A program made the translations under genes and the position numbers. Source: Escherichia coli (GTDB taxonomy: Bacteria > Pseudomonadota > Gammaproteobacteria > Enterobacterales > Enterobacteriaceae). From it: a DNA stretch of 64,000 bases. The DNA is taken from NCBI RefSeq assembly GCF_036507355.1, contig NZ_AP027877.1; one strand, written 5' to 3'. Below, piece by piece: positions 2,248 to 52,591 of this stretch. The number at the start of each line of letters is the position of its first letter. Position 1 is the first letter of the stretch. The notes under the pieces are model-generated. The model searched no databases and had not been told where the DNA came from. It saw nothing but the letters and a program-made list of their open reading frames with translations.

Positions 2248-2457
2248 TCGAATATCATGGAAATAATATGTGTCCGTTTTAAGGGCTATTACAGGCTTGG
2301 TGTGTTGGATTTGTTTTTCTTATTACGAACAAATAGCGACTGGCTCAGGCCGGGATTGTTTAGAGACAGATTCAGCATAGATTCGTAAAAATAAAAACTA
2401 TTAGCGCGAGATCCTCTGTTTATGCCGTGACAGTTAACTGATAGGAGGCTTGTTGGT

Positions 2458-3161
2458 TGGATTTGCCCCTATATTTCCAGACACCTGTTATCACTTAACC
2501 CATTACTGGCCCGCTGCCGCAGATATTCCCGTGGCGAGCGATAACCCAGCGCACTATGCGGATGCCATTCGTTATAATGCTCGAACGCCTCTGCAAGGTT
2601 CTTTGCTGCCGTTAACCCGTCTGGTTTGGGCATGATACTTATGTAGTCACGCTTTATCGTTTTCACGAAGCTCTCTGCTATTCCGTTACTCTCCGGACTC
2701 CGCACTGCCGTGTTCTTCGGTTCAAGTCCCAACATCCTGGCGAACTGACGTGTTTCATTCGCCCGGTAGCATGAACCATTATCCGTCAGCCACTCCACTG
2801 GAGACGCCGGAAGCTCGCTGCCAAAGCGGCGTTCCACTGCTCCCAGCATGACGTCCTGTACTGTTTCACTGTCGAAGCCACCCGTTGTGACCCCCCAGTG
2901 CAGTGCCTCACGGTCACAGCAGTCCAACGCGAACGTGACCCGCAGTTTTTCTCCGTTATCACAGCGGAACTCAAACCCGTCAGAGCACCATCGCTGATTA
3001 CTTTCTTTCACAGCCACTCTGCCGGTATGTGCCCGTTTCGATGGCGGTACAGCGGGTTTTCGCTCAAGCAACAGCGCATTCTGGCGCATGATCCGGTAAA
3101 CACGTTTGGCATTGATCGCAGGCATACCATCAAGTTCTGTTTGTCTGCGAAGCAGCGCCCA
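2458..3161 (-). mobile_element. IS2 remnant: right inverted repeat plus 3' part of orfB (IS3-family transposase), 5' portion deleted
   Basis: ORF 2469-3125 matches the IS2 OrfB C-terminal region as I remember it (...[36 protein letters not shown]...[12 protein letters not shown]); terminus TGGATTTGCCCCTATATTTCCAGACA at 2458. Similarity stops abruptly near 3161. Confidence 0.8.
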
Positions 3162-3636
3162 TAACGCAGCCCTTGCCTTACTGGTGTTTCTGGCCCTGAC
3201 CGGATTACGCCTTGGTGAAACCCGTTATCTTCTGCTTGAGGATATCGACTGGTCCCGTCAGACCATCACTTTGCGAGAAACTAAAAACGGTAAGCTTCGC
3301 TGTGTGCCAGTGGGTGATAAGGCCTTTGTTCTTCTGACTGAGCAGCGCCAGCACTTGGGCGATAAAGGCTGGGTTTTCCCCGGCTATAACACAACTAATC
3401 CGGTTGCAGAACCACGCCGTCTGCAAAAGCGTATATGTGAGAAAGCCGGTATTTCACCATTCACTATTCATGAGATGCGACACACTTTCGCCACGAAACT
3501 TATCGAGAGTGGGGCTGACATCCATACCATCAAAGATTTACTGGGCCACAGCACCATAAAGGTTACCGAGAGGTACCTACATGGCAGCCCGGTGCGCTAC
3601 CACGAGGCCATTAACAAGGCGATGGATACGTTCTAG
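3160..3636 (+). pseudogene. Tyrosine recombinase (phage-type integrase) C-terminal catalytic fragment, N-terminus missing
   Basis: ORF 3106-3636 carries integrase catalytic motifs (HEMRHTFAT, LLGHSTIKVTERYLH) but only ~160 aa; directly abuts the truncated IS2 segment. Confidence 0.7.
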
Positions 3637-3717: not shown

Positions 3718-5643
3718 ATGAATAACATAGTGACACCCGCCCCCTTAACGACAATGGCGCGTTTTGCCTGTTCGAAACTGAATGGATTTCTGGCTCGTCG
3801 GGCTTTGCATCAGGCAAATGCGAAGAAAATCCTTAAAAAGGCAATTGCAATCAGCATTGCGGTCGATGAGATTTCGGCAAAAGGGGGGCGTGATGGTCTG
3901 CCTGATGGGTTTGTTAACTCACCGCATGGGCTTTTTTATGATGATGGCAAAAAAGTGTTTCAGCTCAGTTCTACTGCTATTGTTCCCGTCAGCAGGCATT
4001 ATTCAGCGTGTAAGAAGCGCAATATGGGTGTCGAACTCATGACCATTAATCATGCGGGTCAGTATGTCTGCGCTGAAATTTCACTGAGCAACGTTACGCT
4101 AAACCCCGATAGTGTGATTGGCTCCCTGACAGCGCAAGGTTTCGGTATCCCTATGACGGTAAAGACGAAAGAGCTGTTGGCGCAGTTCTTACAGACATGT
4201 ATGAAGCAAGCGCTGGCTCTCCCTACCTACCTTGTCGCTGATTCAATGGGATTTGTACCCGGCAAGAAAGCGTTCTTACATGGCAATATGCCTTTAGCAC
4301 AGAACATCCCTGGGTTTGATTACCTTATTTCCGTTCAGCGTACACCCGCAGGGATCGTTGAGTCCGGCACGCTGGATGCGTGGAAGGCTCTGGTGAAAAA
4401 GAATGTCCATGGATGGCCACAGATTTTTGCATTGTGTTCTGCCTTTGCGTCCATGCTGGTTGCATTGTGTAAAATGGATGTGGCGATGTTTCACTTCTAT
4501 GGTGGGTCAACGACTGGAAAAACGATCCTTCTCCAGCTTGCGATGTCAGTTCATGGTCATGGCGGGGAGCCGGGAAGTGGAAAGCTTGTCAATGTTCTTC
4601 GCTGGAATACCACGGTGAATGCGCTAGAGAAGCGACTGAGTCAGTTCTCAGGCCTGCTGGCATGTGTGGATGAGTTGGGGGCTTATAAACAAAAGGACTT
4701 CGCTTCGCTCCTGTACAACATTACCGCCGGTCAGGGTAAAAGCAGAATGGACAAGAATCTGGATATACGTGAGCTTTATACATGGGAAATGTTAATTCTC
4801 TCCGCAGGTGAAATGTCCATTTCTGAGAAGCTAGCGACGGAAAAAGAACATCTTCAGGGTGGACAGGAACATCGCGCCATTAGCCTCAATGTTTTGCCTG
4901 AAGATGCCCGTAAAGACGGCGAATCATCAGAAAGGGTACGCTGCCGCGCTGATAGTCTGAAAAATGGCCTGAGTGAAGTTTATGGTACGGCGGGTAAGGA
5001 ATTTATTGCTAATTTGCTGGCACTGGATAATGACGATGATGAACCGCAGTCCTGGGATGAAATGTGCCTGTCTATTCAGGGGGCAGTAGAAGAACAACGT
5101 GACAGTCTTGTCGGTGAGCTGCAGGAAGAAGGTTATGCACTTAGTGACATTCAGCTGCGTGCATTAAAACGATTTTCCCTATGTTTGTGTGCCGGAATCC
5201 TGGCAGCATCATGGAATATCCTTCCGTTCAGTGAAGATATTATTAAGGGTGCGGTAATGAGCGCGGCTCGTCGCTGGCTGGATGATAAACCAAACCAGTA
5301 TAGCCCACTAAAGCAGGTGCTTACGGCTATCCAGCACGATCTTCTCACAACCAGAGCGTCCCATTTAATGCCGTTGCTTGATGAGGATGCGCATACCCCA
5401 TACAACCACTGGGGGTACACGGATAAGAACGATAACATGATGATTTTCGCTCCTGTTTTTGAAGGCTGGTGTGCCAAAAAAGGCATTAAACCTGCTGATG
5501 TGGCGAAAGCATTGGCAAAAAAAAATCACCTCAAACCAGAAAGTCAGGGCCACTACAAAAAACGTCCTCAGAAGGGAGTTCAGCAACCTTTTTATCTGGT
5601 TATGAATACATTTCTTGGCTGTAACATTGGCGCTGACTTTTAA
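3718..5643 (+). CDS. DUF927-like protein with P-loop NTPase (primase/helicase-like replication protein of integrative elements)
   Basis: 641-aa ORF with Walker A GGSTTGKT and Walker B-like CVDELG; architecture recalled from P4-like/integrative-element replication proteins. Confidence 0.55.
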   Translation: MNNIVTPAPLTTMARFACSKLNGFLARRALHQANAKKILKKAIAISIAVDEISAKGGRDGLPDGFVNSPHGLFYDDGKKVFQLSSTAIVPVSRHYSACKKRNMGVELMTINHAGQYVCAEISLSNVTLNPDSVIGSLTAQGFGIPMTVKTKELLAQFLQTCMKQALALPTYLVADSMGFVPGKKAFLHGNMPLAQNIPGFDYLISVQRTPAGIVESGTLDAWKALVKKNVHGWPQIFALCSAFASMLVALCKMDVAMFHFYGGSTTGKTILLQLAMSVHGHGGEPGSGKLVNVLRWNTTVNALEKRLSQFSGLLACVDELGAYKQKDFASLLYNITAGQGKSRMDKNLDIRELYTWEMLILSAGEMSISEKLATEKEHLQGGQEHRAISLNVLPEDARKDGESSERVRCRADSLKNGLSEVYGTAGKEFIANLLALDNDDDEPQSWDEMCLSIQGAVEEQRDSLVGELQEEGYALSDIQLRALKRFSLCLCAGILAASWNILPFSEDIIKGAVMSAARRWLDDKPNQYSPLKQVLTAIQHDLLTTRASHLMPLLDEDAHTPYNHWGYTDKNDNMMIFAPVFEGWCAKKGIKPADVAKALAKKNHLKPESQGHYKKRPQKGVQQPFYLVMNTFLGCNIGADF

Positions 5644-6365: not shown

Positions 6366-7553
6366 CTACAACGTATCGGGTAACTGAGCGCGGATACGTT
6401 CCGCCAGTAACTGACTGGTGTTCTGTAAGCGCTGAGGATGAAGATGTGCATAACGCTGTGAAGACTGACTGCTACGGTGCCCCAGTTGAGCCTGAACGTC
6501 ATATAGCGTACCGCCGTAGGACACGATGAGGGCGGCAACCGAATGGCGGCAGGTATGGATACACACTTCCTTGTCGAAAATTCCCGCCCGACGCACGATA
6601 CGCTGAAAGGCTTTAACCGGGTTACTCAGCGGCATTCCCTGTTTTTTACCAATAAACAACCACGGATTTCCCCGCTGCGTTGGCAGCGTTCTGATTACGT
6701 CCATCGCCAGTGAGTTAAGGTGAACAATCCGTCCATAGCCATTCTTGGTTTCAGGGAGCCACAGGGTGCGTTTAACCGGGTCAACATGCTCCCACTTTGC
6801 CAGACGCAGCTCATCGCGGCGAAGGCCGGTCAATAACAGCAGTTTGACATAGCGGGCAGCTACAGGGCTGGTATCGTTATCGGCGGAGAGAAAAATACGA
6901 CGAATTTCGTCCTCGGTAAAATAACGCTGTCGGGCGTTGTTCTCCCTGAGTAGCTGTACCACCCTTGCCGGATGAACAGAGGTCATGCTTTGCCTTCCGG
7001 CCCATGTAAAGACGGCTTTAATGAGTACGATGACACGGTTACAGGTAGCCGCTGACAGGGAAGTACTTAACGTCTGCTGAAGGCGCAGAATGCTCGCTGG
7101 TGTGATATCGCTCAGCAGCCTCTGACCAATGGCGGGACGGATATGATCGCGGTAGCGCTGAACATCCTTTCCCCAACTGCGTTTAGCGGATTTTGCCCAT
7201 GGCAGATAATGCTGATTAAAGAGTTCATCGAACGTCAGCTCCATTCTCTTGTTTTCACGCTCCTGCTTAGGGTCAGTGCCGGTGGCAAGGGAACGTTTGT
7301 GTTCTATGGCAATCTGACGGGCAAGATTGACGTCCACTTCAGGCCAGTGACCAATGGCGATGGCGCGTTTTCGTCCATGATAGAGGTAGCGGAGCAAAAA
7401 CTTTTTACGACCTTCTTTTCTGCTGACCAGACACTTGAGGCCGGAAATCTCGGTGTCGCTGTATTCGGCATCGGTGCTGCGTGCATCTGATGTGTTAGGG
7501 GGCAGTGATTTAATGAGCTGATTAGTAAAACGGAAGCGTTTGGGAGTGGACAT
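6366..7553 (-). CDS. int: P4-type tyrosine integrase
   Basis: 395-aa ORF with arm-binding-like N-terminus and catalytic R..HxxR..Y region (HTCRHSVAALIV, LGHRSSQSSQRYAHL); lies 7.3 kb from tRNA-Phe and is transcribed away from it. Confidence 0.85.
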   Translation of the reverse strand: MSTPKRFRFTNQLIKSLPPNTSDARSTDAEYSDTEISGLKCLVSRKEGRKKFLLRYLYHGRKRAIAIGHWPEVDVNLARQIAIEHKRSLATGTDPKQERENKRMELTFDELFNQHYLPWAKSAKRSWGKDVQRYRDHIRPAIGQRLLSDITPASILRLQQTLSTSLSAATCNRVIVLIKAVFTWAGRQSMTSVHPARVVQLLRENNARQRYFTEDEIRRIFLSADNDTSPVAARYVKLLLLTGLRRDELRLAKWEHVDPVKRTLWLPETKNGYGRIVHLNSLAMDVIRTLPTQRGNPWLFIGKKQGMPLSNPVKAFQRIVRRAGIFDKEVCIHTCRHSVAALIVSYGGTLYDVQAQLGHRSSQSSQRYAHLHPQRLQNTSQLLAERIRAQLPDTL

Positions 7554-7985
7554 ATAACCTCCTGTGACTGGTGTAAAGAACGTCAGGGTTGACCCATCCC
7601 CGGCACGGCGTTGTTAATGGCTAAGTTGATTTTCTGGCATGGCGAAGGGAATGCTGGTGCCACATGGTATGAATTAAGACGGGAAATGCAGAAAGAGCAG
7701 GCTTTACGGTCTGATTCTGGTCTTAAGGGAAAAGATTGCCGTTGGGGAAGAGTTCACAGAAATAATATGTGTTTCAGTCTAGAACAATTACATGCCATGA
7801 GGATCAAGAGAGTTGCCCGTATATGGCAGGTATCAAAGTTGGTTATGGATGTTGCCAAAACATAGTGGGGATGGATGTTGAAGTGCTAACTTGATGTTTT
7901 TAATGGGAAAGTGTAAATTGCGTGATGCGTTGCACTCATGTAGATAACACCATTGAAAGTATCAAATTGTTTGAAAAAAAATCAT

Positions 7986-8056
7986 CTTTGATCAACCTTA
8001 AGATTGTTTCTAGATGGTAAAATCTTCATATGGGAAAGAGCTCACTGGTAAGGAAG
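7986..8056 (+). promoter_or_regulatory. Putative promoter and RBS for the four-gene operon
   Basis: AT-rich divergent intergenic region; TTGATC ... TGGTAAAAT (extended -10-like) and AGGAAG 10 nt before the ATG at 8067. By eye only. Confidence 0.25.
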
Positions 8057-8066
8057 ACAAATCCTG

Positions 8067-9119
8067 ATGGGGATCATCGTACGAATTCTTAAAGCTAACC
8101 ATGGCGATTGCATTTTGGTGAGCCATGAAAGCGGTTCAGGCACTCTCAACTTGCTCATTGATGGGGGACCTGCGACGACATTCAGGTATGGCATTAGGCA
8201 GCGCTATTCTGGAGCATTGAGTAACGCTCTCGATGATCTGAAAGGAAAGGGGCAAAACATTGATCTGGCTATCCTGACCCACATTGATGATGATCACATA
8301 AATGGTTTTATCAAGGCATTCGAAAGTCCAAACTATCTGCGTCAGCTGGTTAAATCGATCTGGTTCAATTCTTCGAGGTTAATCACACATCATTTTAATG
8401 TGCCTGAAATTTGTGAAAATAATATTTTCTTGCAGGAAGTTTCCCCTGAAACTAGCGTTAAACAGGGGCAAGAACTTGAGGCATTACTTGATGAAATCGG
8501 ATGTGTGCGAGCACCGCTCATTATGGCAGGGCAAATCTACAAAGTAGGCCCGATTACTTTAACAGCACTTTCACCTGAACGAAGACAACTCGAACAGCTT
8601 TTGCATAAGTGGCCAACGGAAGTAAGTTCAGCTGACACTTCTTCATATGAGAATGATTATCACCGTTCATTGGACGAAATTTGGGCAGATGATAGATTTG
8701 AATCTGACTCATCTATTTATAATGGAAGCTCAATTGCATTTTTACTGGAAACAGATGACAAAAAAATGCTTTTTTTAGGAGACGCCAATGACCAAGTTGT
8801 TACAAAAAATTTAAGAGCATTGGGCTATAGCGAAACAAACAAGTTGAAGCTGGATCTGGTTAAAGTTTCGCATCATGGTAGTCAATACAACACAAGCAAC
8901 GAATTTCTTTCAATACTAGATTCTCCATGCTTTGTTATTTCAACCAATGGTTCGAAGCATGGTCTTCCTAATAAAAGGACTATTGCAAGGATCTTAAAGG
9001 AAACAGATGGTGATATTTATTTTAATTACAGCAATGTAATTACTCCGCTGCTTTTAGCGCATGAAGCTGAGAGCTATTCTTCTCGTCTAAAAGTGCTAGG
9101 TGATGAGATTAAATTCTAA
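8067..9119 (+). CDS. Metallo-beta-lactamase-fold hydrolase (putative nuclease)
   Basis: 350-aa ORF with MBL motifs in canonical order: LIDGG, THIDDDH (8278-8298), FLGDAN, VSHHGS. Confidence 0.7.
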   Translation: MGIIVRILKANHGDCILVSHESGSGTLNLLIDGGPATTFRYGIRQRYSGALSNALDDLKGKGQNIDLAILTHIDDDHINGFIKAFESPNYLRQLVKSIWFNSSRLITHHFNVPEICENNIFLQEVSPETSVKQGQELEALLDEIGCVRAPLIMAGQIYKVGPITLTALSPERRQLEQLLHKWPTEVSSADTSSYENDYHRSLDEIWADDRFESDSSIYNGSSIAFLLETDDKKMLFLGDANDQVVTKNLRALGYSETNKLKLDLVKVSHHGSQYNTSNEFLSILDSPCFVISTNGSKHGLPNKRTIARILKETDGDIYFNYSNVITPLLLAHEAESYSSRLKVLGDEIKF

Positions 9120-10419
9120 CATGACAGTTTACGAAATAATGCAGTCCCACTGCGTCATGGTTAATGGTGGCAGTGGTGTGCTAGTTAATGCAATGACACT
9201 GGATTACACATATGTACTGACTGCATACCATGTTATTCGTGACACTCTCGATAATATCGAAGTTACCGATCACAGTGGCAATAAACTTACAGTATTAGCT
9301 GTGCTCCTATATCCAGATATTAAATATTTGAACGAATCCCATAATGATTTCGCAATTTTAAAAATTGAATATCAACCAGAAGTTGCACAAAGTTGTTTTA
9401 CTGCTTCGACGTTGCCTCCTCGTGCTGAGCTTACATTAGTAGGATTTCCAAACACTGAAAGAAGGAGTTCGGATCCTATAAAATATTATGATGGACATAT
9501 GACTAGCGTGGTCGATGAGCTTGTCATTTTCACTGTTGATGGTGTACCAGGCTTAGCCACGATAAAGGGGATGTCAGGTGGAGGTGTATATCACATAGTT
9601 GGTAGAAATACATTTCTTGTTGGTGTTGAGTTTAGGATGGATGGCACTGAAGAGGAACAACAGTTTGGCCGAGTGCAATGCCATAGCTTAGCAAAGTTTG
9701 ATGAAATAATAAGAGCATACGATAGCGCACCGATGATTCCTGCCCATTTGGAATGCTTTTCTCGAATACAAGACAAAATATTTAAATTTAATGTTATTGA
9801 TCAAAACAATGTTCGTAATCTTAAAGATGCGTTAGAAGCCCTTTCCAGATCACTTATAGCTAGTGGGATGTCTCCGCCTTACAAAATCATGGGGCAATAT
9901 GGATTACAGCTTTTGATGGATCCCAAAACTCCTAATGAGCTCAGTAATAAAGAGTTATGGATTTCTTATTTTGAATTTTTAGTTATTTGCTCTGTGATAG
10001 ATAATGTTGGAATTGTGGATGATGCATATATAAAAAGCTTGGAGCGAAAGCGGCGGCTATTATATACCAGTAATGGTGCGAACTGGATTAGCCATTTGGA
10101 AGAACTACTCAAAACGGCACGAAAACTTTTAGATAAGGATGGCACTTTAATCGTTGCATCACCTGATGCTGCTGCAAGTGTCTTGCCTCCGAACTTTCGA
10201 CTTAAAAACGTAATAAGTAATATAGCGGTAGTGCCAAACCAGGGGCCGTTTGCTATCGATGAAGTTGAAAGTTCTATTTATACAAGCTTCAAATTAACTC
10301 ATCTGGAGGGACTCCGCAAAAGCTGCGTAATAGACCGTGAGGATGAATATCTAGTAGTTCCAGCAGGTGTACCACAATTGCAGTTATTTAAGGAGAAGCT
10401 TAATGAAATTATTAAGTAA
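9100..10419 (+). CDS. Trypsin-like serine protease domain fused to a ~250-aa C-terminal domain of unknown function
   Basis: His (LTAYHVI), Asp (NDFAILK), Ser (GMSGGGVY) in S1 order in the first ~170 aa. Start ambiguous (GTG 9100, ATG 9103 or ATG 9121); overlaps or abuts the upstream stop. Confidence 0.7.
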   Translation: MMRLNSNMTVYEIMQSHCVMVNGGSGVLVNAMTLDYTYVLTAYHVIRDTLDNIEVTDHSGNKLTVLAVLLYPDIKYLNESHNDFAILKIEYQPEVAQSCFTASTLPPRAELTLVGFPNTERRSSDPIKYYDGHMTSVVDELVIFTVDGVPGLATIKGMSGGGVYHIVGRNTFLVGVEFRMDGTEEEQQFGRVQCHSLAKFDEIIRAYDSAPMIPAHLECFSRIQDKIFKFNVIDQNNVRNLKDALEALSRSLIASGMSPPYKIMGQYGLQLLMDPKTPNELSNKELWISYFEFLVICSVIDNVGIVDDAYIKSLERKRRLLYTSNGANWISHLEELLKTARKLLDKDGTLIVASPDAAASVLPPNFRLKNVISNIAVVPNQGPFAIDEVESSIYTSFKLTHLEGLRKSCVIDREDEYLVVPAGVPQLQLFKEKLNEIIK

Positions 10420-10942
10420 GGAAGTCGATCTGAGTATTTTAAGTGTGAAATATGATAAAATCAGATTTCACATGTATTGCTCAGATGATCCACTTTCATT
10501 TATTTCCTGTATAGTATGTGTATGTGAGACTTCAGCCGATATTTTGGAGAATTGGCGTACTATTCAAAATGTGGTTTCTGTTCACTATCAACCATCGGGT
10601 GACTTAGCATCTTGGAATATGTATATTGTTTTTTTTACAACTGATGTTTTTCCTGTATGGGAAAAATATGAAATAGAAAACAATAAGTTTGCTGCTCGCA
10701 AGATAATTATTGATAAATTCTCAGGTGCCCCCACCTCTGCTCAGTTAGTTACTGAGTTGCAAAAATATTTGTTGGGAACAGACTTAAGACTTGATCCGCG
10801 AGTCAATGAGTCAAAAGAGGCTTTATTGTCTTTAGATAAATACGTTCGTGGTGCTCCATTAGATTCAAAGAATGAGTCCAGAGAAATCCGCGCCTCCATG
10901 GTCAATGAAATAATTAAATTTTTGAACAAAAATGAAAATTAA
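10403..10942 (+). CDS. Small protein of unknown function (possible adaptor component)
   Basis: 179-aa ORF from ATG 10403 with AGGAG upstream; overlaps previous gene end by 17 nt and next gene start by 11 nt. Confidence 0.55.
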   Translation: MKLLSKEVDLSILSVKYDKIRFHMYCSDDPLSFISCIVCVCETSADILENWRTIQNVVSVHYQPSGDLASWNMYIVFFTTDVFPVWEKYEIENNKFAARKIIIDKFSGAPTSAQLVTELQKYLLGTDLRLDPRVNESKEALLSLDKYVRGAPLDSKNESREIRASMVNEIIKFLNKNEN

Positions 10943-13900
10943 AAAAGTTGAGATTGAAGCATTTCGTGCCTACAAATCTAGGTCAGATGGCACGTTTGAT
11001 TTCACGAATGATGGAGATGTTGCTGCAAATTTTGTTGCGATCTATGCTCCGAATGGTTTTGGTAAAAGCTCCTTCTACGATGCTGTTGAATGGGCAATTA
11101 CCAATCACATGGCAAGACTTGGCGGAGAATATAATAAAGCTAATTATGAGAACGCTGCCAAAATCACCAAGGACGATAATGTTGGGCAAGAAATTTTACG
11201 TAATAAATATGTAGATAAAAATATACGCACAAAGGTAGTGGTATCAACCACTCGACCACTCCCTTTTGAGCGTAAACTACCCAAAGTCAGATCTAATGGG
11301 CGTGATTTGCGATTCGGAGATAATAGTCAAAGAGAAAATGATTTTTTCCGACAAGTGATTCTAAGTCAAGATGAAATTGATAGATTTCTCCGAGAAGCCA
11401 AACCGCAAGAGCGCTATACGAAATTTATGGAAAGTTTCGGTGGAGATATTGAAATTGCCCGTAAAGAGCTGTCAGTACTTATAAATGATAATAAGATTGA
11501 GTTGAATAATCTCAATAAAAAGAGAGAATCTATTCTTGAACAATTAAAACAACCAATAGATTCTTCAATTTTCCAAAAATTCAATTCTATTGCTGTTGAA
11601 TTGAATAAGTTGGGTGAAAATATTCAATTACCTGACGAGAGTTTTTCATCTCAAGATGAATATGCTCTTAATGTTAGTCTTATATCGCGACGCCATGAAC
11701 TCGACTCATCACGTTTAACGAACAATCGAACGGTAGAAGCACTGGAAGACAGGCTTCTAAAAATATCTGAAACTGAATTACATGTCCGCAGTTTAGCAGA
11801 ACAGAATTTACATCTTGCTAAATTAGTGAAAGGAGTGGCCGACGCTGATAGGTACCAATCACTTTTGGATTCATACGAAAAATGTGCAGAAGATCAGAAA
11901 ACCACACACATGCATATGACTCGTATTATAGAAGTGATTGATTGCCTTGATGATTTTCTAAAAATTGAGTCTCATCTTCTTGAGTTGTCTACTAGCCAAA
12001 AGATAATTTCTGAAGAACGCACCAAGATCTGTGCGCAGCTTGCAGGTTTTGAAACAACAATTAATCAATTGAATAAGGAGCTTAAGGCTGTAGATGATAG
12101 GGTCGCTATACTTAGGAAGACCGTTGATAACGCCGGGCAAGTATATTTGGAGCTCGCAAATAACCGGGCTCGGGTAAGTAACCTAACACAGCAAATATCA
12201 AAAAAAGAAGTTTCTATTAAGATAGATAAATCTAGGCTTGGGGAGTTGAATCGTGAGTTGACTAGACTTTCTGAACTCAATATTAATGCCACCTCATTAT
12301 CAAACGGAAATCTAGGGACCTTACTTTTAGAACCTACGAAAGTTGAGCAGCTGACGAGATGTTACGCCGAGTTTGATGTGATTGAATCACAAATTCAAGC
12401 TGTGCATGTTACTCAAAAAGCATTATCTGAACAGATGGAATTGCATGAACGACTGATTGCCATTGGAATTGACTATCTTAGTGTACGACCATCCAGTATC
12501 TGTCCTTTATGTACAGCTCCTCACCCATCTGCGGACGGTTTACTGGATAAAATTAAAGGGCGGAACCTTTTATCAGAATTAAGTGAGGAGAATTCTAAAC
12601 AGCTTTTATTTTTCTCTACACGTCAGAAAGAAATTCTTCAATCAATTCAGGATATTACTCAGTGCGCAATTGATTCAAAGGCTCAGTTGATTATTAACTT
12701 AAACAAGGAATTGAGTGAGACTGACGAGAGACTTACTCTTGCAGGTAGAGATATATATTCAATAGAAGCAGAGTTAAAGACTCTTGAGAAACGGACCACA
12801 GAGTTAGAAAGTTTAGTTTGGGCACTTTCACATGATGAACTGGTATCCCGAATTGAAAAAGAAATTGGTGAGCTTTCAATCAAAAGTTCAAAGCTCCTAG
12901 AAGGAAAAGCATTAATTACCCCTCAGGTTGAAATGCTTAATGAATCACTCAAAGAAAAAGACTCTGCGCAGCAAAAAATAGCTTCGGAGTTGGAAGGTAT
13001 CTTTAGCGGAAATATCTACATTACAGTTTATAAATACTTAAATGAAAATGCGATTTCGTCTTCATCCCTCAAAAGTCATACTGAAAAAAGGAAACTAGAG
13101 ATTGAGGCTGAAATAATTAAGTGTAAAACCACTATTGAGTTTTTGACTGAACAATGTGCTGTTTTACAGCAAAAAATGTTAAGTGATGGTATGTGGGTGG
13201 ATTTTGTTCAGTTGAAGCTGCAAAAAGAATCTTTAGAAATAAGTGTTGCCCGCTCTCAATCAGTAATTAACACGTTTTATGAGAGTTTATCTAACCTTAT
13301 AATTATCCGTCCTGAGTACAGTCTTGAAAAAGTCAAAGAGCTCATAGCTGCGAAAGTTCAGGATTGCCATCTTCGTACGAAAGAATTTGATAGGCTCTCA
13401 AATAATATTAATTTACTCATAGAACTTATGAGTTCGTTTAAGCCATATATTAAACATACAGCTCTTCAGAAAGATTTAATGGCTGAAGAGATGTTAATAA
13501 AACAGCGTGAACGGGTCGACACTACTTTAACCGCAGAAAGAGATGCAATAGTGGATAGCCTGAAACTTCTTATCAATAATTTCTTCTATGAAGATCTTAT
13601 TAATTCTATTTATAAGAAGATAGATCCGCATCCTGCCTTTAAAAAAGTAGAGTTTAAGGCTGACTTTGATTCTGATAAGCCAGGCCTAAATATTGTGGTT
13701 AGTGATGAGGTTGGAGAGCAAATCTCGCCAATACTTTATTTCAGTGCGGCTCAAACGAATATTCTAAGCTTAAGTGTCTTTTTAGCTAGTGCACTTCATG
13801 CGAAAGACGATGAGGGTAATCCCATCAATGTTGTTATGATTGATGACCCAATTCAGTCAATGGATTCGATTAATATACTCTCTACGATAGATCTTTTAAG

Positions 13901-14063
13901 AAGTATATGTGTTCAATTTGATAAACAAATTATTATTTCAACGCATGATGAAAACTTCTTTGCCTTACTCCAGCGCAAAATCCCTGCCCAAATTTTTGGA
14001 TCTAAATTCTTGCAATTGGAAAAGTTTGGTGTAGTCGTCCCGGTGCAACCCTTTGTGAACTAA
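10932..14063 (+). CDS. SbcC/Rad50-like ABC ATPase with long coiled coil and central CxxC zinc hook
   Basis: 1043 aa: Walker A NGFGKSS (Lys codon 11064-11066), Q-loop ILSQDE, CPLC at 12501-12512 (residues 524-527, mid-protein), signature-like FSAAQ, Walker B VVMIDDP, H-loop STHDE. The middle ~600 aa are heptad-rich and Leu/Glu/Lys-rich. Confidence 0.8.
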   Translation: MKIKKVEIEAFRAYKSRSDGTFDFTNDGDVAANFVAIYAPNGFGKSSFYDAVEWAITNHMARLGGEYNKANYENAAKITKDDNVGQEILRNKYVDKNIRTKVVVSTTRPLPFERKLPKVRSNGRDLRFGDNSQRENDFFRQVILSQDEIDRFLREAKPQERYTKFMESFGGDIEIARKELSVLINDNKIELNNLNKKRESILEQLKQPIDSSIFQKFNSIAVELNKLGENIQLPDESFSSQDEYALNVSLISRRHELDSSRLTNNRTVEALEDRLLKISETELHVRSLAEQNLHLAKLVKGVADADRYQSLLDSYEKCAEDQKTTHMHMTRIIEVIDCLDDFLKIESHLLELSTSQKIISEERTKICAQLAGFETTINQLNKELKAVDDRVAILRKTVDNAGQVYLELANNRARVSNLTQQISKKEVSIKIDKSRLGELNRELTRLSELNINATSLSNGNLGTLLLEPTKVEQLTRCYAEFDVIESQIQAVHVTQKALSEQMELHERLIAIGIDYLSVRPSSICPLCTAPHPSADGLLDKIKGRNLLSELSEENSKQLLFFSTRQKEILQSIQDITQCAIDSKAQLIINLNKELSETDERLTLAGRDIYSIEAELKTLEKRTTELESLVWALSHDELVSRIEKEIGELSIKSSKLLEGKALITPQVEMLNESLKEKDSAQQKIASELEGIFSGNIYITVYKYLNENAISSSSLKSHTEKRKLEIEAEIIKCKTTIEFLTEQCAVLQQKMLSDGMWVDFVQLKLQKESLEISVARSQSVINTFYESLSNLIIIRPEYSLEKVKELIAAKVQDCHLRTKEFDRLSNNINLLIELMSSFKPYIKHTALQKDLMAEEMLIKQRERVDTTLTAERDAIVDSLKLLINNFFYEDLINSIYKKIDPHPAFKKVEFKADFDSDKPGLNIVVSDEVGEQISPILYFSAAQTNILSLSVFLASALHAKDDEGNPINVVMIDDPIQSMDSINILSTIDLLRSICVQFDKQIIISTHDENFFALLQRKIPAQIFGSKFLQLEKFGVVVPVQPFVN

Positions 14064-14559
14064 AGTGCTTGCACTGCCTCTAAACAATCTGCATGCACAT
14101 CTCGTTGACTAAATTTGAAACGAGATGTGCATTGCTCGTTATAAAAATAAGGCATGTTCTAATTATCCAATCCCCATCAGTATAAGTGGGTGGATAGATA
14201 TATTTGGCCCCTTTAACAGATATGTTAATTTCCACTTTTCGCTTACAGTGGACCTGCAGCTCAGTAACTTACTCACTTTGTGCTAGGAACGGGCATTGCT
14301 AATAGTCAGAGTGTATGACCTGCTCATCGTTGATTAAGGACAGCGCTGTACTGGTTCGTTGAACCCACGGCTCACAACGGACACTCAGGTTATTATTCCA
14401 ATACGTTTAGCTCAAGTAGTATTACTACGGATAAATCATTTTATGATGGCGTGGAGAACGGGGGGATTCTGAAAATGGTAAGAAGTGAAAGGGCAAGAAG
14501 AGCTTGTTGCAGGTGGACGGACTGGTGAAGATTCCCATCTGGAGGGTGTATGCTGCCAA

Positions 14560-14730
14560 GTTTCCCCGCTTGCTATTGGGGATTTCCCCACCTTATTCCC
14601 CGCGACAAAATCATGTTAAGACCAGCGGATTAAGGAGAAATGATAATTCCCCCGTTTTCCCCGTATTTTCTACTTCATTATGAATGATCTGAGAGAAAGG
14701 AACCGTAGAGGACCGTAGAAAGACCGTAGC
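14560..14730. repeat. Clustered short direct repeats (five TTCCCC motifs at 14561-14663; three ACCGTAG repeats at 14702-14729, ~10-11 bp phasing)
   Basis: Read directly from the sequence in the 840-bp non-coding stretch between the operon and tRNA-Phe. Confidence 0.4.
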
Positions 14731-14899: not shown

Positions 14900-14975
14900 T
14901 GGTGCCCGGACTCGGAATCGAACCAAGGACACGGGGATTTTCAATCCCCTGCTCTACCGACTGAGCTATCCGGGC
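14900..14975 (-). tRNA. pheV: tRNA-Phe (GAA anticodon)
   Basis: Reverse complement reads GCCCGGATAGCTCAGTCGGTAGAGCAGGGGATTGAAAATCCCCGTGTCCTTGGTTCGATTCCGAGTCCGGGCACCA, the E. coli tRNA-Phe as I remember it; position next to yqgA-speC indicates pheV. Confidence 0.95.
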
Positions 14976-47234: not shown

Positions 47235-49226
47235 ATGTCCTCACGTAAAGAGCTTGCCAATGCTATTCGTGCGCTGAGCATGGACGCAGTACAGAAAGCC
47301 AAATCCGGTCACCCGGGTGCCCCTATGGGTATGGCTGACATTGCCGAAGTCCTGTGGCGTGATTTCCTGAAACACAACCCGCAGAATCCGTCCTGGGCTG
47401 ACCGTGACCGCTTCGTGCTGTCCAACGGCCACGGCTCCATGCTGATCTACAGCCTGCTGCACCTCACCGGTTACGATCTGCCGATGGAAGAACTGAAAAA
47501 CTTCCGTCAGCTGCACTCTAAAACTCCGGGCCACCCGGAAGTGGGTTACACCGCTGGTGTGGAAACCACCACCGGTCCGCTGGGGCAGGGTATTGCCAAC
47601 GCAGTAGGTATGGCGATTGCAGAAAAAACGCTGGCGGCGCAGTTTAACCGTCCGGGCCACGACATTGTCGACCACTACACCTACGCCTTCATGGGCGACG
47701 GCTGCATGATGGAAGGCATCTCCCACGAAGTTTGCTCTCTGGCGGGTACGCTGAAGCTGGGTAAACTGATTGCGTTCTACGATGACAACGGTATCTCTAT
47801 TGATGGTCACGTTGAAGGCTGGTTCACCGACGACACCGCAATGCGTTTCGAAGCTTACGGCTGGCACGTTATTCGCGACATCGACGGTCATGACGCAGCA
47901 TCCATCAAACGCGCAGTAGAAGAAGCGCGCGCAGTGACTGACAAACCGTCCCTGCTGATGTGCAAAACCATCATCGGTTTCGGTTCCCCGAACAAAGCCG
48001 GTACTCACGACTCCCACGGTGCGCCGCTGGGTGATGCAGAAATCGCTCTGACCCGCGAACAGCTGGGCTGGAAATACGCACCGTTCGAAATCCCGTCTGA
48101 AATCTATGCGCAGTGGGATGCGAAAGAAGCAGGCCAGGCGAAAGAAGCTGCCTGGAATGAGAAATTCGCGGCTTACGCCAAAGCCTTCCCGCAGGAAGCG
48201 GCTGAATTCACCCGTCGTATGAAAGGTGAAATGCCGTCTGACTTCGACGCGAAAGCGAATGAATTCATTGCGAAGCTGCAGGCTAACCCGGCGAAAATCG
48301 CCAGCCGTAAAGCGTCGCAGAATGCTATCGAAGCGTTCGGCCCGCTGTTGCCGGAATTCCTCGGCGGCTCCGCTGACCTGGCACCGTCTAACCTGACCCT
48401 GTGGTCTGGTTCTAAAGCAATCAACGAAGATGCTGCGGGTAACTACATCCACTACGGTGTTCGCGAGTTCGGTATGACCGCGATTGCTAACGGTATCTCC
48501 CTGCACGGTGGCTTCCTGCCGTACACCTCCACCTTCCTGATGTTTGTCGAATACGCACGTAACGCCGTACGTATGGCTGCGCTGATGAAACAGCGTCAGG
48601 TGATGGTTTACACCCACGACTCCATCGGTCTGGGCGAAGACGGCCCGACTCACCAGCCGGTTGAGCAGGTCGCTTCTCTGCGCGTGACCCCGAACATGTC
48701 TACATGGCGTCCGTGTGACCAGGTTGAATCTGCAGTAGCGTGGAAATACGGCGTTGAGCGTCAGGACGGCCCGACCGCGCTGATCCTCTCCCGTCAGAAC
48801 CTGGCGCAGCAGGAGCGTACTGAAGAGCAACTGGCAAACATCGCGCGCGGTGGTTATGTACTGAAAGACTGCGCCGGTCAGCCGGAACTGATTTTCATCG
48901 CTACCGGTTCAGAAGTTGAATTGGCGGTTGCTGCCTACGAAAAACTGACTGCTGAAGGCGTGAAAGCGCGCGTGGTGTCCATGCCGTCTACCGACGCATT
49001 TGACAAGCAGGATGCGGCTTACCGTGAATCCGTACTGCCGAAAGCGGTTACTGCACGCGTTGCTGTAGAAGCGGGTATTGCTGACTACTGGTACAAGTAT
49101 GTTGGCCTGAACGGTGCTATCGTCGGTATGACCACCTTCGGTGAATCTGCTCCGGCAGAGCTGCTGTTTGAAGAGTTCGGCTTCACTGTTGATAACGTTG
49201 TTGCGAAAGCAAAAGCGCTGCTGTAA
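47235..49226 (+). CDS. tktA: Transketolase 1
   Basis: 663 aa from [20 protein letters not shown]...; sequence recognised. Confidence 0.95.
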
Positions 49227-49245
49227 TCAGTAAGACGTTTTGTGA

Positions 49246-49268
49246 GAAGGGCCGCGAAAGCGGCCCTT
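49246..49268 (+). terminator. Hairpin terminator after tktA (first of two identical hairpin copies)
   Basis: GAAGGGCCGCGAAAGCGGCCCTT; the same hairpin recurs at 49422-49447. Confidence 0.5.
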
Positions 49269-49296
49269 TAGATTATTGGTAAAGTGCGCGTTGTTC

Positions 49297-49399
<103 letters not shown>

Positions 49400-49445
49400 T
49401 TTGCTTTTGCCATCACTCTCAAGGGCCGCGAAAGCGGCCCTTTTT

Positions 49446-50354
49446 TTACTTAGTAGAGATAAACGGAACTGTGCTGCCGGGGATCATGGTATCGGGCAGT
49501 TTACCGTCCCAACGTTCGGCAGTGGTGAGGGCTACAAGTCCGGGATTATCCCGCAGAGCTTCACCGCGCAGGCGGATTGCTTCTGCTTCAGCCGCACTTT
49601 TTAAACGAATAGTTTCAGCCTCTGCCGCGCCTCTTACGCGAATAGTTTCCGCTTCTGCTTTGGCTGCCGCCAGTTTACTGTCTGCTTCTGCCTGGGCCTG
49701 AGTTACCGCTATTTGCGCCTGGATTTTCTCTGTTTCCAGATTTTGCTTACGCGTGGCAATGGCGACTTCTGCTTTCATTCGGTCTTCAATCGACTTTTCA
49801 TAAGCGTCAGAAAAATCAATATTTTCAATCTGGACCCCGTCAATTACCACTGGCCCAACAACGGCTTTGCGCATGGCATTTTGCAGATCCTGAACCAGTT
49901 TTGTACGATCCTGTACAGCGCTGATGGCGGTATATTGGCCGAAAACGTTCTCCAGTTGAGTTGGCAACTGACGGACAATCAGACGATCTTTTAATGCTTC
50001 AATGGTGTTGTAGGTGGTATAAACCGCGCCTGCTTCTGAAGGTTTAATGTGGAAGCTGACTGATACTGTCATTTGTGCCGGTTGCTGGTCGCGGCTGTAG
50101 GCCTGTAATCCCTGATAGACCACAGCCTGATTACGCGTGGAAATTTTCTCCACGCTTTCCATAAACGGGATCTTAAAACCCAGACCCGGCTCGGCAACTT
50201 TTACGATTTTTCCGTAGCGCAGCAAAATGCCGCGTTCACCTTCATTAACGGTGTAATACGAGAGAAATGGCAGCACAACCACGGCAAGCACGCCAATGGC
50301 GATAGCAAGAGATTTTTGTGGGCGAAATGAGGTTAATGAAACAGGTGCTTTCAT
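49446..50354 (-). CDS. SPFH/band-7 (prohibitin/HflC-like) membrane protein
   Basis: 302 aa with N-terminal TM segment and SPFH-like core followed by an Ala/Glu-rich coiled-coil tail. I do not recall a gene at this position in K-12. Confidence 0.65.
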   Translation of the reverse strand: MKAPVSLTSFRPQKSLAIAIGVLAVVVLPFLSYYTVNEGERGILLRYGKIVKVAEPGLGFKIPFMESVEKISTRNQAVVYQGLQAYSRDQQPAQMTVSVSFHIKPSEAGAVYTTYNTIEALKDRLIVRQLPTQLENVFGQYTAISAVQDRTKLVQDLQNAMRKAVVGPVVIDGVQIENIDFSDAYEKSIEDRMKAEVAIATRKQNLETEKIQAQIAVTQAQAEADSKLAAAKAEAETIRVRGAAEAETIRLKSAAEAEAIRLRGEALRDNPGLVALTTAERWDGKLPDTMIPGSTVPFISTK

Positions 50355-50731
50355 GACAATCTTCCTTGAGTAAAGTGTGGGAATATGTCACATGAGATGA
50401 GGAGAAAACAGCCGACAGGTGAGAATTCAGAATCTATAAAGGGGTATAGCGAAAAAACATTGCATTAGAAAAGTATGTTTTCGAACATTCAATAAATAAA
50501 TAGAGATATGCATCACAAATACAATAACAAACAAAATGTTGATTTTGTGATAAATATAACAAATACAAAGTTGACTTTAAAAATATCAATTTCATATTGT
50601 TGTTATTTAAGGTTTTATTATTTTGGTTTATGGGGTTTTTCTTCTCGCGTACCCAATTGCTTTCATTAAACCGCACGAGTATTTTATTTTTACCGCCTGA
50701 CGGTACCCTAAAAATAAAATAAGGATAATTT

Positions 50732-51175
50732 ATGCGGCTTAGTGATTATTTTCCAGAATCATCAATCTCAGTTATACATTCAGCAAAAGATTGGCAGGAA
50801 GCTATCGATTTCTCGATGGTATCATTGCTGGATAAAAACTATATCAGCGAGAATTACATTCAGGCAATTAAAGATTCCACCATTAACAATGGCCCTTATT
50901 ATATTCTCGCACCAGGCGTGGCAATGCCTCATGCGCGACCGGAATGTGGGGCGCTTAAAACCGGGATGTCTTTGACATTACTTGAACAAGGTGTTTATTT
51001 TCCGGGGAATGACGAACCAATTAAATTACTCATCGGACTCTCTGCTGCCGATGCCGATTCGCACATTGGCGCTATTCAGGCGTTAAGTGAATTACTGTGC
51101 GAAGAAGAAATACTCGAACAACTCTTAACAGCATCATCAGAAAAACAATTAGCGGACATTATCAGCCGCGGATAA
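50732..51175 (+). CDS. cmtB: Cryptic mannitol-type PTS enzyme IIA
   Basis: 147 aa; sequence recognised. Confidence 0.9.
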   Translation: MRLSDYFPESSISVIHSAKDWQEAIDFSMVSLLDKNYISENYIQAIKDSTINNGPYYILAPGVAMPHARPECGALKTGMSLTLLEQGVYFPGNDEPIKLLIGLSAADADSHIGAIQALSELLCEEEILEQLLTASSEKQLADIISRG

Positions 51176-51202
51176 TTACTCTCTCCTCTACAGGATAATA
51201 TT

Positions 51203-52591
51203 ATGGAAAACAAGTCTGCTCGTGCAAAGGTCCAGGCTTTTGGGGGCTTTTTGACTGCAATGGTCATCCCCAATATTGGTGCTTTTATTGCCTGGGGTTT
51301 TATTACTGCGTTATTTATTCCCACCGGTTGGCTGCCTAACGAACATTTCGCCAAAATTGTCGGCCCGATGATTACCTATTTATTGCCCGTGATGATTGGT
51401 TCTACCGGTGGTCATCTGGTCGGCGGTAAACGCGGCGCGGTCATGGGCGGAATAGGTACTATTGGTGTGATCGTCGGCGCAGAGATCCCGATGTTCCTTG
51501 GCTCAATGATTATGGGGCCGCTCGGTGGTCTGGTCATAAAATATGTTGATAAGGCACTGGAAAAACGCATACCTGCCGGTTTTGAGATGGTTATCAATAA
51601 CTTCTCATTAGGTATCGCGGGGATGCTCCTTTGCCTGCTGGGTTTTGAAGTGATCGGCCCGGCGGTGTTAATTGCCAATACTTTCGTCAAAGAGTGTATT
51701 GAGGCGCTGGTACATGCGGGTTATCTGCCTCTGCTGTCAGTCATCAATGAACCGGCGAAAGTGCTTTTCCTTAATAATGCGATCGATCAGGGCGTCTATT
51801 ATCCGCTGGGAATGCAACAGGCTTCGGTTAACGGTAAATCCATCTTCTTTATGGTGGCCTCTAACCCAGGTCCGGGCCTGGGGCTGCTGCTGGCGTTTAC
51901 CTTGTTTGGTAAAGGGATGAGTAAACGTTCTGCGCCCGGGGCGATGATTATTCACTTCCTCGGTGGGATCCACGAACTGTATTTCCCATATGTGCTGATG
52001 AAGCCGCTGACTATTATTGCCATGATTGCGGGCGGTATGTCTGGCACCTGGATGTTTAACTTACTGGACGGTGGTCTGGTGGCTGGCCCAAGTCCGGGGT
52101 CTATCTTTGCTTACCTGGCGCTGACGCCGAAAGGTTCGTTCCTGGCGACAATTGCCGGTGTTACGGTAGGTACCCTGGTGTCCTTTGCTATCACTTCGCT
52201 GATACTGAAGATGGAAAAAACGGTGGAAACGGAGAGCGAAGATGAGTTTGCTCAGTCAGCCAATGCGGTTAAGGCGATGAAACAAGAGGGTGCATTCTCG
52301 TTAAGCAGGGTTAAGCGTATCGCCTTTGTTTGCGATGCGGGGATGGGCTCCAGTGCGATGGGCGCGACCACCTTCCGTAAACGCCTGGAAAAAGCGGGGC
52401 TGGCAATTGAAGTAAAACATTACGCCATAGAAAACGTGCCTGCGGATGCGGATATCGTCGTTACTCATGCCAGTCTGGAAGGGCGCGTGAAACGTGTGAC
52501 GGATAAACCACTGATATTGATTAACAACTATATTGGCGATCCAAAACTCGACACTTTATTTAATCAATTAACCGCCGAACATAAACACTGA
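51203..52591 (+). CDS. cmtA: Cryptic mannitol-type PTS enzyme IICB
   Basis: 462 aa polytopic membrane protein with C-terminal IIB domain. Confidence 0.9.
   Translation: MENKSARAKVQAFGGFLTAMVIPNIGAFIAWGFITALFIPTGWLPNEHFAKIVGPMITYLLPVMIGSTGGHLVGGKRGAVMGGIGTIGVIVGAEIPMFLGSMIMGPLGGLVIKYVDKALEKRIPAGFEMVINNFSLGIAGMLLCLLGFEVIGPAVLIANTFVKECIEALVHAGYLPLLSVINEPAKVLFLNNAIDQGVYYPLGMQQASVNGKSIFFMVASNPGPGLGLLLAFTLFGKGMSKRSAPGAMIIHFLGGIHELYFPYVLMKPLTIIAMIAGGMSGTWMFNLLDGGLVAGPSPGSIFAYLALTPKGSFLATIAGVTVGTLVSFAITSLILKMEKTVETESEDEFAQSANAVKAMKQEGAFSLSRVKRIAFVCDAGMGSSAMGATTFRKRLEKAGLAIEVKHYAIENVPADADIVVTHASLEGRVKRVTDKPLILINNYIGDPKLDTLFNQLTAEHKH

Follow-up and report, generated by a model that had tools for sequence, protein, structure and literature searches.

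A long Hydrolase-Protease Lamassu operon in a tRNA-Phe island of Escherichia coli

Four genes at 8067-14063 of a 64,000-nucleotide stretch of Escherichia coli DNA (the window) are a standard example of a named anti-phage system, the Hydrolase-Protease subtype of Lamassu (ABC-3C). It is quite probable that they form an intact "long" Lamassu that acts against phages or plasmids, is carried as cargo of a tRNA-Phe island, and works through the five-step mechanism proposed below. An earlier note on this DNA had placed the genes among ABC three-component or Lamassu-type defense operons, in agreement with PADLOC and with the Pfam families CTD4 and MComp1, but had taken the combination to be undescribed and unnamed. 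The latter view has to be given up. PADLOC, Pfam, and DefenseFinder profiles and two papers (PMC12663957 and PMC12799240) already cover the combination, and the PADLOC search proposed as a check of novelty assigns all four proteins to Lamassu models, an already characterized system. Pfam, run on LmuA, LmuC, and LmuB, gives Trypsin_2 plus CTD4, MComp1, and AAA_23/SMC_N.

Layout and assignment of the locus

The features of the locus and its immediate surroundings are as follows.

6366..7553, - strand: tyrosine integrase of the tRNA-Phe island (context, outside the system)
7953..7982, + strand: candidate sigma-70-like promoter 5' of the MBL gene, a weak match to the consensus (TTGAAA-18-AAAAAT)
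8067..9119, + strand: MBL-fold (ComEC-like) hydrolase, the accessory "hydrolase" of Lamassu-Hydrolase_Protease (PADLOC PDLC03854)
9121..10419, + strand: LmuA, trypsin-like protease with a CTD4 docking domain (PADLOC PDLC03855)
10403..10942, + strand: LmuC, small middle component (MComp1), 179 aa (PADLOC PDLC03873)
10932..14063, + strand: LmuB, long Rad50/SbcC-like ABC ATPase, 1043 aa (PADLOC PDLC03865)
14091..14135, + strand: hairpin with a perfect 13-bp stem, 28 nt 3' of the lmuB stop codon, without a clear U-run
14900..14975, - strand: tRNA-Phe (GAA), pheV, the island integration site (context)

The four open reading frames are intact and, as the earlier note described, co-oriented on the + strand and tightly packed. 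They are far beyond chance, because each has full-length homologs at E<1e-50. Mechanical calling gives ORF 1 at 8067-9119 (350 aa), ORF 2 at 9100-10419 from a GTG at 9100, ORF 3 at 10367-10942, and ORF 4 at 10932-14063 (1043 aa). Sequence comparison indicates that lmuA most likely starts at ATG 9121 rather than at GTG 9100, since the PADLOC model begins there, as do 80 of 120 homologs. The lmuC start is corrected to ATG 10403 by the PADLOC alignment, which begins at residue 13 of the mechanical ORF, and the RefSeq annotation agrees. The resulting junctions are +1, -17, and -11 nt. Thus, of the overlapping stop/start junctions reported earlier, those at both ends of lmuC stand (17 nt with the end of lmuA, 11 nt with lmuB), whereas the start at 9121 puts 1 nt between the MBL stop codon and lmuA. 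The corrected junctions still look like those of a translationally coupled operon. The upstream TTGAAA-18-AAAAAT site is only a candidate promoter, as promoter-like sites are no more frequent in this region than in shuffled sequence. The downstream hairpin (-26.5 kcal/mol, z = -4.85 against shuffles) is a probable operon-end terminator or stabilizer.

Several lines of evidence support the Lamassu assignment. PADLOC 2.0 has a dedicated Lamassu model for each of the four proteins, and each match spans the protein from one end to the other. RefSeq names the proteins as ABC-three-component. DefenseFinder contains the profiles "LmuA_effector_Protease" and "LmuB_SMC_Hydrolase_protease" and the subtype "Lamassu-Hydrolase_Protease", which, as "long" Lamassu, is equivalent to ABC-3C with MComp1/CTD4; the ABC-3C assignment itself rests on the Pfam family names and later papers. 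LmuB is the SMC/Rad50-like ABC ATPase, its heads split and joined to a coiled coil. The gene that separates lmuA from lmuB encodes the small middle component, and LmuA has an N-terminal effector and a C-terminal ABC-3C docking domain. The MBL hydrolase has a gene of its own directly 5' of protease-lmuA, ending 1 nt before the lmuA ATG. The Lamassu-Hydrolase_Protease subtype consists of these four components in this order, beginning with the MBL hydrolase and followed by trypsin-LmuA and its docking domain, LmuC, and LmuB. Its example from Bacillus cereus B4077 is listed as experimentally validated (Haudiquet et al. 2025, PMC12663957), with Millman 2022 cited there as the source. The copy described here is gammaproteobacterial and resides in E. 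coli. Shared with the subtype are an hhhhDD Walker B, a single CxxC hook, and full-length matches to the dedicated profiles. The pairing of an MBL nuclease with trypsin-LmuA in Lamassu has also been described explicitly (Tuck et al. 2025, PMC12799240). As a discovery the locus carries little weight, because standard defense annotators would label it automatically.

Components of the system

LmuB matches its PADLOC model at E=0 and 1037 bits (residues 1-1038 against 1-1006 of 1007), and Pfam AAA_23 and SMC_N matches are split between its N and C termini. The Rad50/SbcC hallmarks noted earlier are all present: a Walker A motif (GFGKS, with K45 encoded at 11064-11066), a zinc hook near mid-length (CPLC, residues 524-527, 12501-12512), a signature-like FSAAQ (13743-13754), a Walker B motif (VVMIDD, residues 967-972, 13830-13847), and an H-loop residue, H1005. 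The Walker B is of the hhhhDD type and the hook is the only CxxC, the two features that define "long Lamassu" (PMC12663957). At 1043 aa the protein is of SbcC-like length, compared with an average of about 800 aa for long LmuB (PMC12663957).

These features raise the question of a housekeeping SbcCD-like DNA repair operon. LmuB does resemble SbcC/Rad50 (a PHROG SbcC-like match at 1.4e-13, and Rad50 as its sole, marginal PDB sequence match at 9e-4), and SbcCD is the proposed ancestor of Lamassu. Like SbcCD and Rad50-Mre11, which sense DNA ends or palindromes, the system has an ATPase with long coiled coils and a CxxC hook. However, no gene for an Mre11/SbcD calcineurin-like phosphoesterase partner occurs at the locus, and, as the earlier note observed, an MBL-fold hydrolase and a protease take its place. 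Protease and MBL nuclease would be the effectors here, and the locus is mobile and rare rather than core, being found in 3 of 5426 complete E. coli genomes within a low-GC island. Because of this distribution and gene content, and with the LmuB model at E=0, the repair reading is already refuted and retains next to no probability.

LmuA matches its PADLOC protease model end to end at 1.6e-142. A trypsin-like serine protease occupies residues 17-161 (9169-9603; Pfam Trypsin_2, 1.6e-08), followed by the ABC-3C docking domain CTD4 at residues 187-404 (9679-10332; Pfam, 1.3e-59). The sequence suggests a catalytically competent triad of H37 (9229-9231), D76 (9346-9348), and S152 (9574-9576), the serine lying in GMSGG (9568-9582). 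H37, D76, and G150-M-S152-G-G-G are invariant in 121 LmuA sequences.

LmuC is recognized by PADLOC at 3.5e-50 and by Pfam MComp1 at 2.3e-08, and nearly all of its 97 homologs are 179-183 aa long. Its MComp1 domain may be a degenerate restriction-endonuclease fold rather than a relic of the SbcD C terminus.

The MBL protein matches the PADLOC LmuA (hydrolase) model over its full length at 2.2e-128, with further matches to the RTasMBL and Avs1a models and, in NCBIfam, to Avs1a and ComEC; its Pfam basis is the PF00753 matches of homologs. The metal motif HIDDDH lies at residues 72-77 (8280-8297), and the catalytic motifs are conserved across 121 sequences. The positions of this motif, of the Lys45 codon, and of CPLC and GMSGG agree with those reported earlier. 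RefSeq calls the protein a "ComEC/Rec2 competence protein", an annotation transferred from the shared MBL domain; this identity is rejected because the protein has only 350 aa and lacks the ComEC membrane channel. In an AF2 model (pLDDT 85), two segments fall below 50, corresponding to disordered insertion loops at residues 120-129 (8424-8453) and 187-194 (8625-8648). Each loop contains a threonine, T129 (8451-8453) or T191 (8637-8639), that is invariant in 121 of 121 sequences and is followed by a small residue (x-T129-[S/T] and x-T191-[S/A/T]). Foldseek returns the phosphorylcholine esterase Pce, marginally first, and the ComEC MBL domain (9ic4, 266 aa) as the best matches to the model. PDB sequence searches with the MBL protein, LmuA, and LmuB yield marginal matches only (ComEC at 7e-4, a spurious designed protein, and the Rad50 match above), indicating that none has a close solved relative.

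Island context and distribution

The integrase and the tRNA-Phe gene bracket the operon, as the earlier note stated; RefSeq annotation gives the tRNA-Phe flank as yqgA-speC. GC content is 0.35-0.40 (about 0.37) over 8-14 kb, compared with about 0.50 in the flanks. The integrase is found in 133 of 5426 E. coli genomes with differing cargo between it and tRNA-Phe, which marks this gap as a swappable cargo slot of the island family. Low GC and the variable slot point to horizontal acquisition of the operon, in line with the earlier description of an acquired island. Since no second copy of the tRNA-Phe 3' end occurs within the window, the island borders are not settable from repeats. The rarity of the operon in E. 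coli is counted against the preferred explanation.

Co-occurrence across genomes, which the earlier note had asked about, is evident outside E. coli. In Pseudomonas, Acinetobacter, Vibrio, and Aeromonas the four genes stand in this order too, encode proteins of similar size, and abut or overlap at their junctions, and the MBL gene lies directly 5' of the protease-lmuA gene in four of four distant loci. The neighborhoods of these loci are unrelated and often contain integrase, DUF927, or transposon genes; TniQ-Csy genes lie beside the Vibrio copy. Homologs of protease-LmuA in the plasmid collection are distant or partial only, and the phage collection holds none.

Part of the neighboring island is in decay, with a truncated recombinase at 3106-3636, and the operon itself might be a decaying, nonfunctional remnant. 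This is very unlikely: all four ORFs are full length against their profile models, every catalytic motif is intact, and the region is 99.8-100% identical in the three E. coli genomes that carry it.

The mobile setting bears on a further question, whether the operon, like DdmABC, mainly excludes plasmids or competes with other mobile elements in the service of the island, rather than defending against phages. Lamassu/DdmABC eliminates plasmids in Vibrio cholerae, the cassette is always found in mobile contexts, including the site beside TniQ-Csy in Vibrio, and searching the phage collection yields no match to it. Such a role is compatible with phage defense, though, and DNA ends or replication intermediates would trigger both. 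Moreover, validated Lamassu systems protect against phages. A predominantly anti-plasmid function is therefore unlikely, and a defense system directed at phages as well as plasmids is the preferred interpretation.

Proposed activation mechanism and the role of the MBL protein

Two families of better-studied systems suggest how this Lamassu may work. In Hachiman (HamM/HamA) and type 1 AVAST (Avs1a/b), an MBL gene likewise lies directly 5' of an N-terminal trypsin fusion, forming trypsin-MBL "gated pro-nuclease" modules (PMC12799240; bioRxiv 2025.09.03.673762). The MBL proteins are DNA-specific nucleases and are switched on by the partner trypsin, a model that has been extended to Lamassu (Tuck et al., PMC12799240). 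They share a ComEC-like core into which two loops are inserted, one at about 110-130 and the other at about 180-200. Huang et al. assign the inhibitory loops to 107-129 and 184-203, with cuts at residues 128/129 and 191/192. The E. coli MBL protein, by its model, appears to have the same ComEC-like core with two extra loops, and its disordered segments coincide with the published loop positions. It is thus predicted, by analogy, to be a gated pro-DNase. The sensor differs, being an SMC-like LmuB/LmuC rather than a helicase or STAND ATPase. The loop sequences differ as well: neither KSS nor IS(G)N, the cleavage motifs described for those modules, occurs in either loop in the 121-sequence alignment. 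From their placement in the modeled loops, T129 and T191 are predicted as candidate cut sites, and the x-T-[S/A/T] loops may represent a third site type.

The short Cap4 Lamassu/DdmABC systems of V. cholerae and Salmonella, for which structures are solved, follow the same LmuA-LmuC-LmuB logic. The C-terminal domain of the effector is sequestered by the sensor, and DNA ends trigger its release and oligomerization. These systems differ from the present one in that their LmuA is itself fused to the effector, a Cap4 nuclease, the LmuB is about 600 aa, often hookless, and of another Walker B type, and the LmuC/CTD families are MC3/CTD7 rather than MComp1/CTD4. The published Lamassu structures are of this short type, and one group of authors regards it as an open question whether protease effectors follow the same activation route. 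No structure or biochemistry was found for the long Hydrolase-Protease branch.

By analogy with these systems, activation likely proceeds in five steps. At rest, a zinc-hook-linked LmuB dimer and LmuC would hold LmuA by its CTD4, keeping the protease monomeric and inactive, and the separately encoded MBL nuclease would be auto-inhibited by two insertion loops lying over its active site. The LmuB heads would then detect an invading phage or plasmid by its DNA ends or by replication or palindrome intermediates. LmuA would be released and would oligomerize through its C-terminal domain, turning on the protease. The protease would cut both MBL gating loops, at sites predicted to adjoin T129 and T191. 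Finally, the unmasked DNase would degrade DNA indiscriminately, leading to cell death or arrest before the phage cycle ends (abortive infection). Abortive-infection defense that requires the ATPase, the effector, and LmuC has been demonstrated for other Lamassu systems.

Alternatively, the protease might itself be the final effector and act on proteins of the host or the phage, with the MBL protein hydrolyzing a non-DNA substrate or acting as a regulator. A phosphodiester on a small molecule or in the cell envelope would be an example of such a substrate. The narrow lead of Pce over ComEC in Foldseek is consistent with this arrangement, Lamassu effectors are highly diverse, and the literature searched contained no mechanistic or biochemical study of the Lamassu trypsin-MBL pair. 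On the other hand, the MBL homologs in Hachiman and AVAST are protease-activated, DNA-specific nucleases, and the present protein matches Avs1a and RTasMBL and has its two loops at the characterized gating positions. A protease acting alone as effector is accordingly quite improbable, and the protease-to-nuclease cascade is favored.

In practical terms the locus provides a long Hydrolase-Protease Lamassu that is native to E. coli, and the invariant loop residues T129 and T191 are concrete, cheap mutants. A combined proposal goes further: that the Lamassu MBL pro-nucleases of this gammaproteobacterial clade are opened at a third, undescribed site type (T129/T191) and that MComp1 is a degenerate restriction-endonuclease fold. 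This is tentative and rather doubtful as a whole. If the third site type is real, the protease-to-nuclease cascade would be under the control of an SbcC-length "long" LmuB/MComp1 sensor, and its activation might not follow the release-and-tetramerize switch of the short Cap4 Lamassu.

Assignment to Lamassu and limits of the genes

The class guess of the earlier note, an ABC three-component or Lamassu-type defence operon, was right: PADLOC, Pfam and RefSeq agree. All four co-oriented ORFs are present as described at 8067-14063, and the motif coordinates proved correct throughout.

Features of the operon and its flanks
6366-7553, minus strand: tyrosine integrase, 5' of the operon
8067-9119, plus strand: MBL protein, 350 aa; PADLOC LmuA-hydrolase PDLC03854 (2.2e-128), also RTasMBL and Avs1a (PADLOC) and Avs1a and ComEC (NCBIfam)
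9121-10419 (mechanical ORF start 9100), plus strand: protease-LmuA fusion; PADLOC LmuA-protease PDLC03855 (1.6e-142); Pfam Trypsin_2 (aa 17-161) and CTD4 (aa 187-404)
10403-10942 (mechanical ORF start 10367), plus strand: LmuC, small protein; PADLOC LmuC PDLC03873 (3.5e-50); Pfam MComp1
10932-14063, plus strand: LmuB ATPase, 1043 aa; PADLOC LmuB PDLC03865 (E=0, 1037 bits, 1-1038 against 1-1006/1007); Pfam AAA_23 and split SMC_N
14900-14975, minus strand: tRNA-Phe(GAA), pheV, 3' of the operon

The combination had been thought undescribed, but it is a named and catalogued type. PADLOC puts all four proteins in Lamassu, with a model for each, and there is a DefenseFinder subtype, 'Lamassu-Hydrolase_Protease', with profiles LmuA_effector_Protease and LmuB_SMC_Hydrolase_protease. 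CTD4 and MComp1 are Pfam families set up for ABC-three-component systems, and RefSeq names the products 'ComEC/Rec2 family', 'ABC-three component system protein', 'ABC-three component system middle component 1' and 'AAA family ATPase'. In the literature, ABC-3C is grouped with Lamassu types I and II, Lamassu-like systems and DdmABC in a single superfamily (PMC10586767). The operon is thus an already known defence type, not a new system. Haudiquet et al. separate two clades of Lamassu, short and long, and give an hhhhDD Walker B motif and a single CxxC for long LmuB (PMC12663957). The present LmuB has VVMIDD as its Walker B and one CPLC at mid-length, and by these motifs the system is therefore assigned to long Lamassu. 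At 1043 aa, its LmuB is longer than the ~800 aa quoted for that clade (PMC12663957).

The limits of protease-LmuA differ between annotations. ATG 9121, one base past the MBL stop codon, is the Met at which the PADLOC model begins and the start used in 80 of 120 homologues. The RefSeq/PGAP start, GTG 9178 (413 aa), would drop N15, G17, S18 and G19, which are invariant in 121 homologues, so ATG 9121 is to be preferred. For lmuC, the PADLOC alignment and the RefSeq annotation both indicate ATG 10403. With these starts the overlapping junctions proposed earlier hold for lmuA/lmuC (-17 nt) and lmuC/lmuB (-11 nt), whereas MBL and lmuA are separated by a gap (+1 nt). A 13-bp hairpin lies 3' of the lmuB stop codon.

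Conserved gene order and a variable island slot

Protease-LmuA, MBL and LmuC each have many homologues (~50-99% identity across the three sets) in Serratia, Shewanella, Aeromonas, Vibrio, Photobacterium, Pseudomonas, Acinetobacter and other hosts. Co-occurrence of the genes is borne out by four loci picked for diversity (Pseudomonas chlororaphis, Acinetobacter, Vibrio and Aeromonas): the order MBL, Trypsin/CTD4, MComp1 and ~1040-aa ABC ATPase is found in 4/4; the proteins are of similar size, and neighbouring genes abut or overlap. Their neighbourhoods are unrelated and mostly mobile, including DUF927, integrases, a TniQ-Csy cluster and a Fic gene. The Vibrio cassette (locus L007, 1-4422) directly adjoins TniQ-Csy2-Csy3-Csy4, a position that suggests carriage by a Tn7-like CRISPR-associated transposon as cargo.

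In E. coli, the operon lies on the chromosome at pheV (flank yqgA-yqgH-speC-nupG), and ORF and tRNA positions confirm its placement between integrase and tRNA-Phe. GC content is 0.35-0.40 across 8-14 kb versus ~0.50 on both flanks. Only 3 of 5426 complete E. coli genomes carry the operon (identity 99.8-100%), whereas the integrase occurs in 133 and the tRNA-proximal 260 bp in ~200. Homology to other strains is lost at ~7794-7831 and regained at ~14638. Elsewhere the gap (comparison loci L004, L005 and L006) holds a 195-aa hypothetical protein, as in strains SH19PTE6 and MLI023K1, or, in ES8, a protein of 472 aa that matches PADLOC HEC-07 weakly. Because the integrase and tRNA-proximal part are commoner than the operon and enclose other cargo, the gap (7794-14638) is a variable, swappable cargo slot, with Lamassu its cargo here. 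In MLI023K1 the same island occupies the other tRNA-Phe locus, adjoining dicD-dsbD.

Several further features were observed. At 3106-3636 (region 2457-3636), a second tyrosine recombinase is reduced to a C-terminal fragment of 176 aa. Strain YZ22MPE54 has it at full length, with ~2.6 kb (L001 4504-7095) where the window has ~0.7 kb; deletion or rearrangement has affected the island near 2457-3636. Between the two recombinase genes, 3718-5643 encodes a DUF927 protein of 641 aa; this is presumably the replication or primase-helicase-like gene of the island. The homologous cassette of P. chlororaphis (L002) likewise has a DUF927 gene at its flank. A non-coding 11-bp tandem repeat, ACCGTAGAAAG (2.6 copies, 14702-14729), lies between lmuB and tRNA-Phe in the part common to other E. 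coli strains. Far from the operon and unrelated to Lamassu are an Rfam ES036 (CssrF) sRNA match (49333-49375, plus strand, 53.5 bits) and a GC dip to ~0.44 (49000-52000).

Candidate cleavage sites and a proposed mechanism

Tuck et al. demonstrate a pro-nuclease role for the upstream MBL protein in Hachiman and AVAST, with oligomerisation needed for protease activation, and draw the same model for Lamassu (PMC12799240). Huang et al., who tested AVAST, Hachiman and Ago versions and make no mention of Lamassu, report a pair of inhibitory loops, 107-129 and 184-203, with cleavage in KSS motifs at 128/129 and 191/192, and a second class with IS(G)N motifs. In Cap4-Lamassu structures, LmuB2-LmuC sequesters the C-terminal domain of LmuA; once LmuB has sensed DNA ends, LmuA is set free and forms tetramers.

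The AF2 model of the MBL protein (pLDDT 85, pTM 0.88) is confident except at aa 120-129 and 187-194, and its core is similar to Pce and to the ComEC MBL domain (266 aa). T129 (8451-8453) and T191 (8637-8639) fall one in each disordered loop and are invariant in 121/121 homologues, the loops being otherwise variable. Across these homologues, the preceding residue varies at both sites; S or T follows T129, and S or A (T in 6 sequences) follows T191. Neither of the published motifs, KSS or IS(G)N, is present in this MBL protein. T129 and T191 are candidate protease cut sites unlike the published ones, their exact positions being predicted. The protease triad H37/D76/S152 is invariant in 121 sequences.

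The mechanism we propose takes every step from relatives. LmuB and LmuC would sense foreign DNA and free LmuA; the freed protease would cut the MBL protein near the predicted T129 and T191 sites; and the MBL DNase thus unleashed may bring about abortive infection.

The literature search found no mechanistic or structural study of a Lamassu trypsin-MBL system, sequence searches of the PDB with MBL, LmuA and LmuB returned no close relative, and a Lamassu structure paper states the question of protease effectors as open. The locus keeps some value as a native model, conveniently in E. coli, of the so far unstudied long Hydrolase-Protease branch, and for its testable prediction of the T129/T191 sites.
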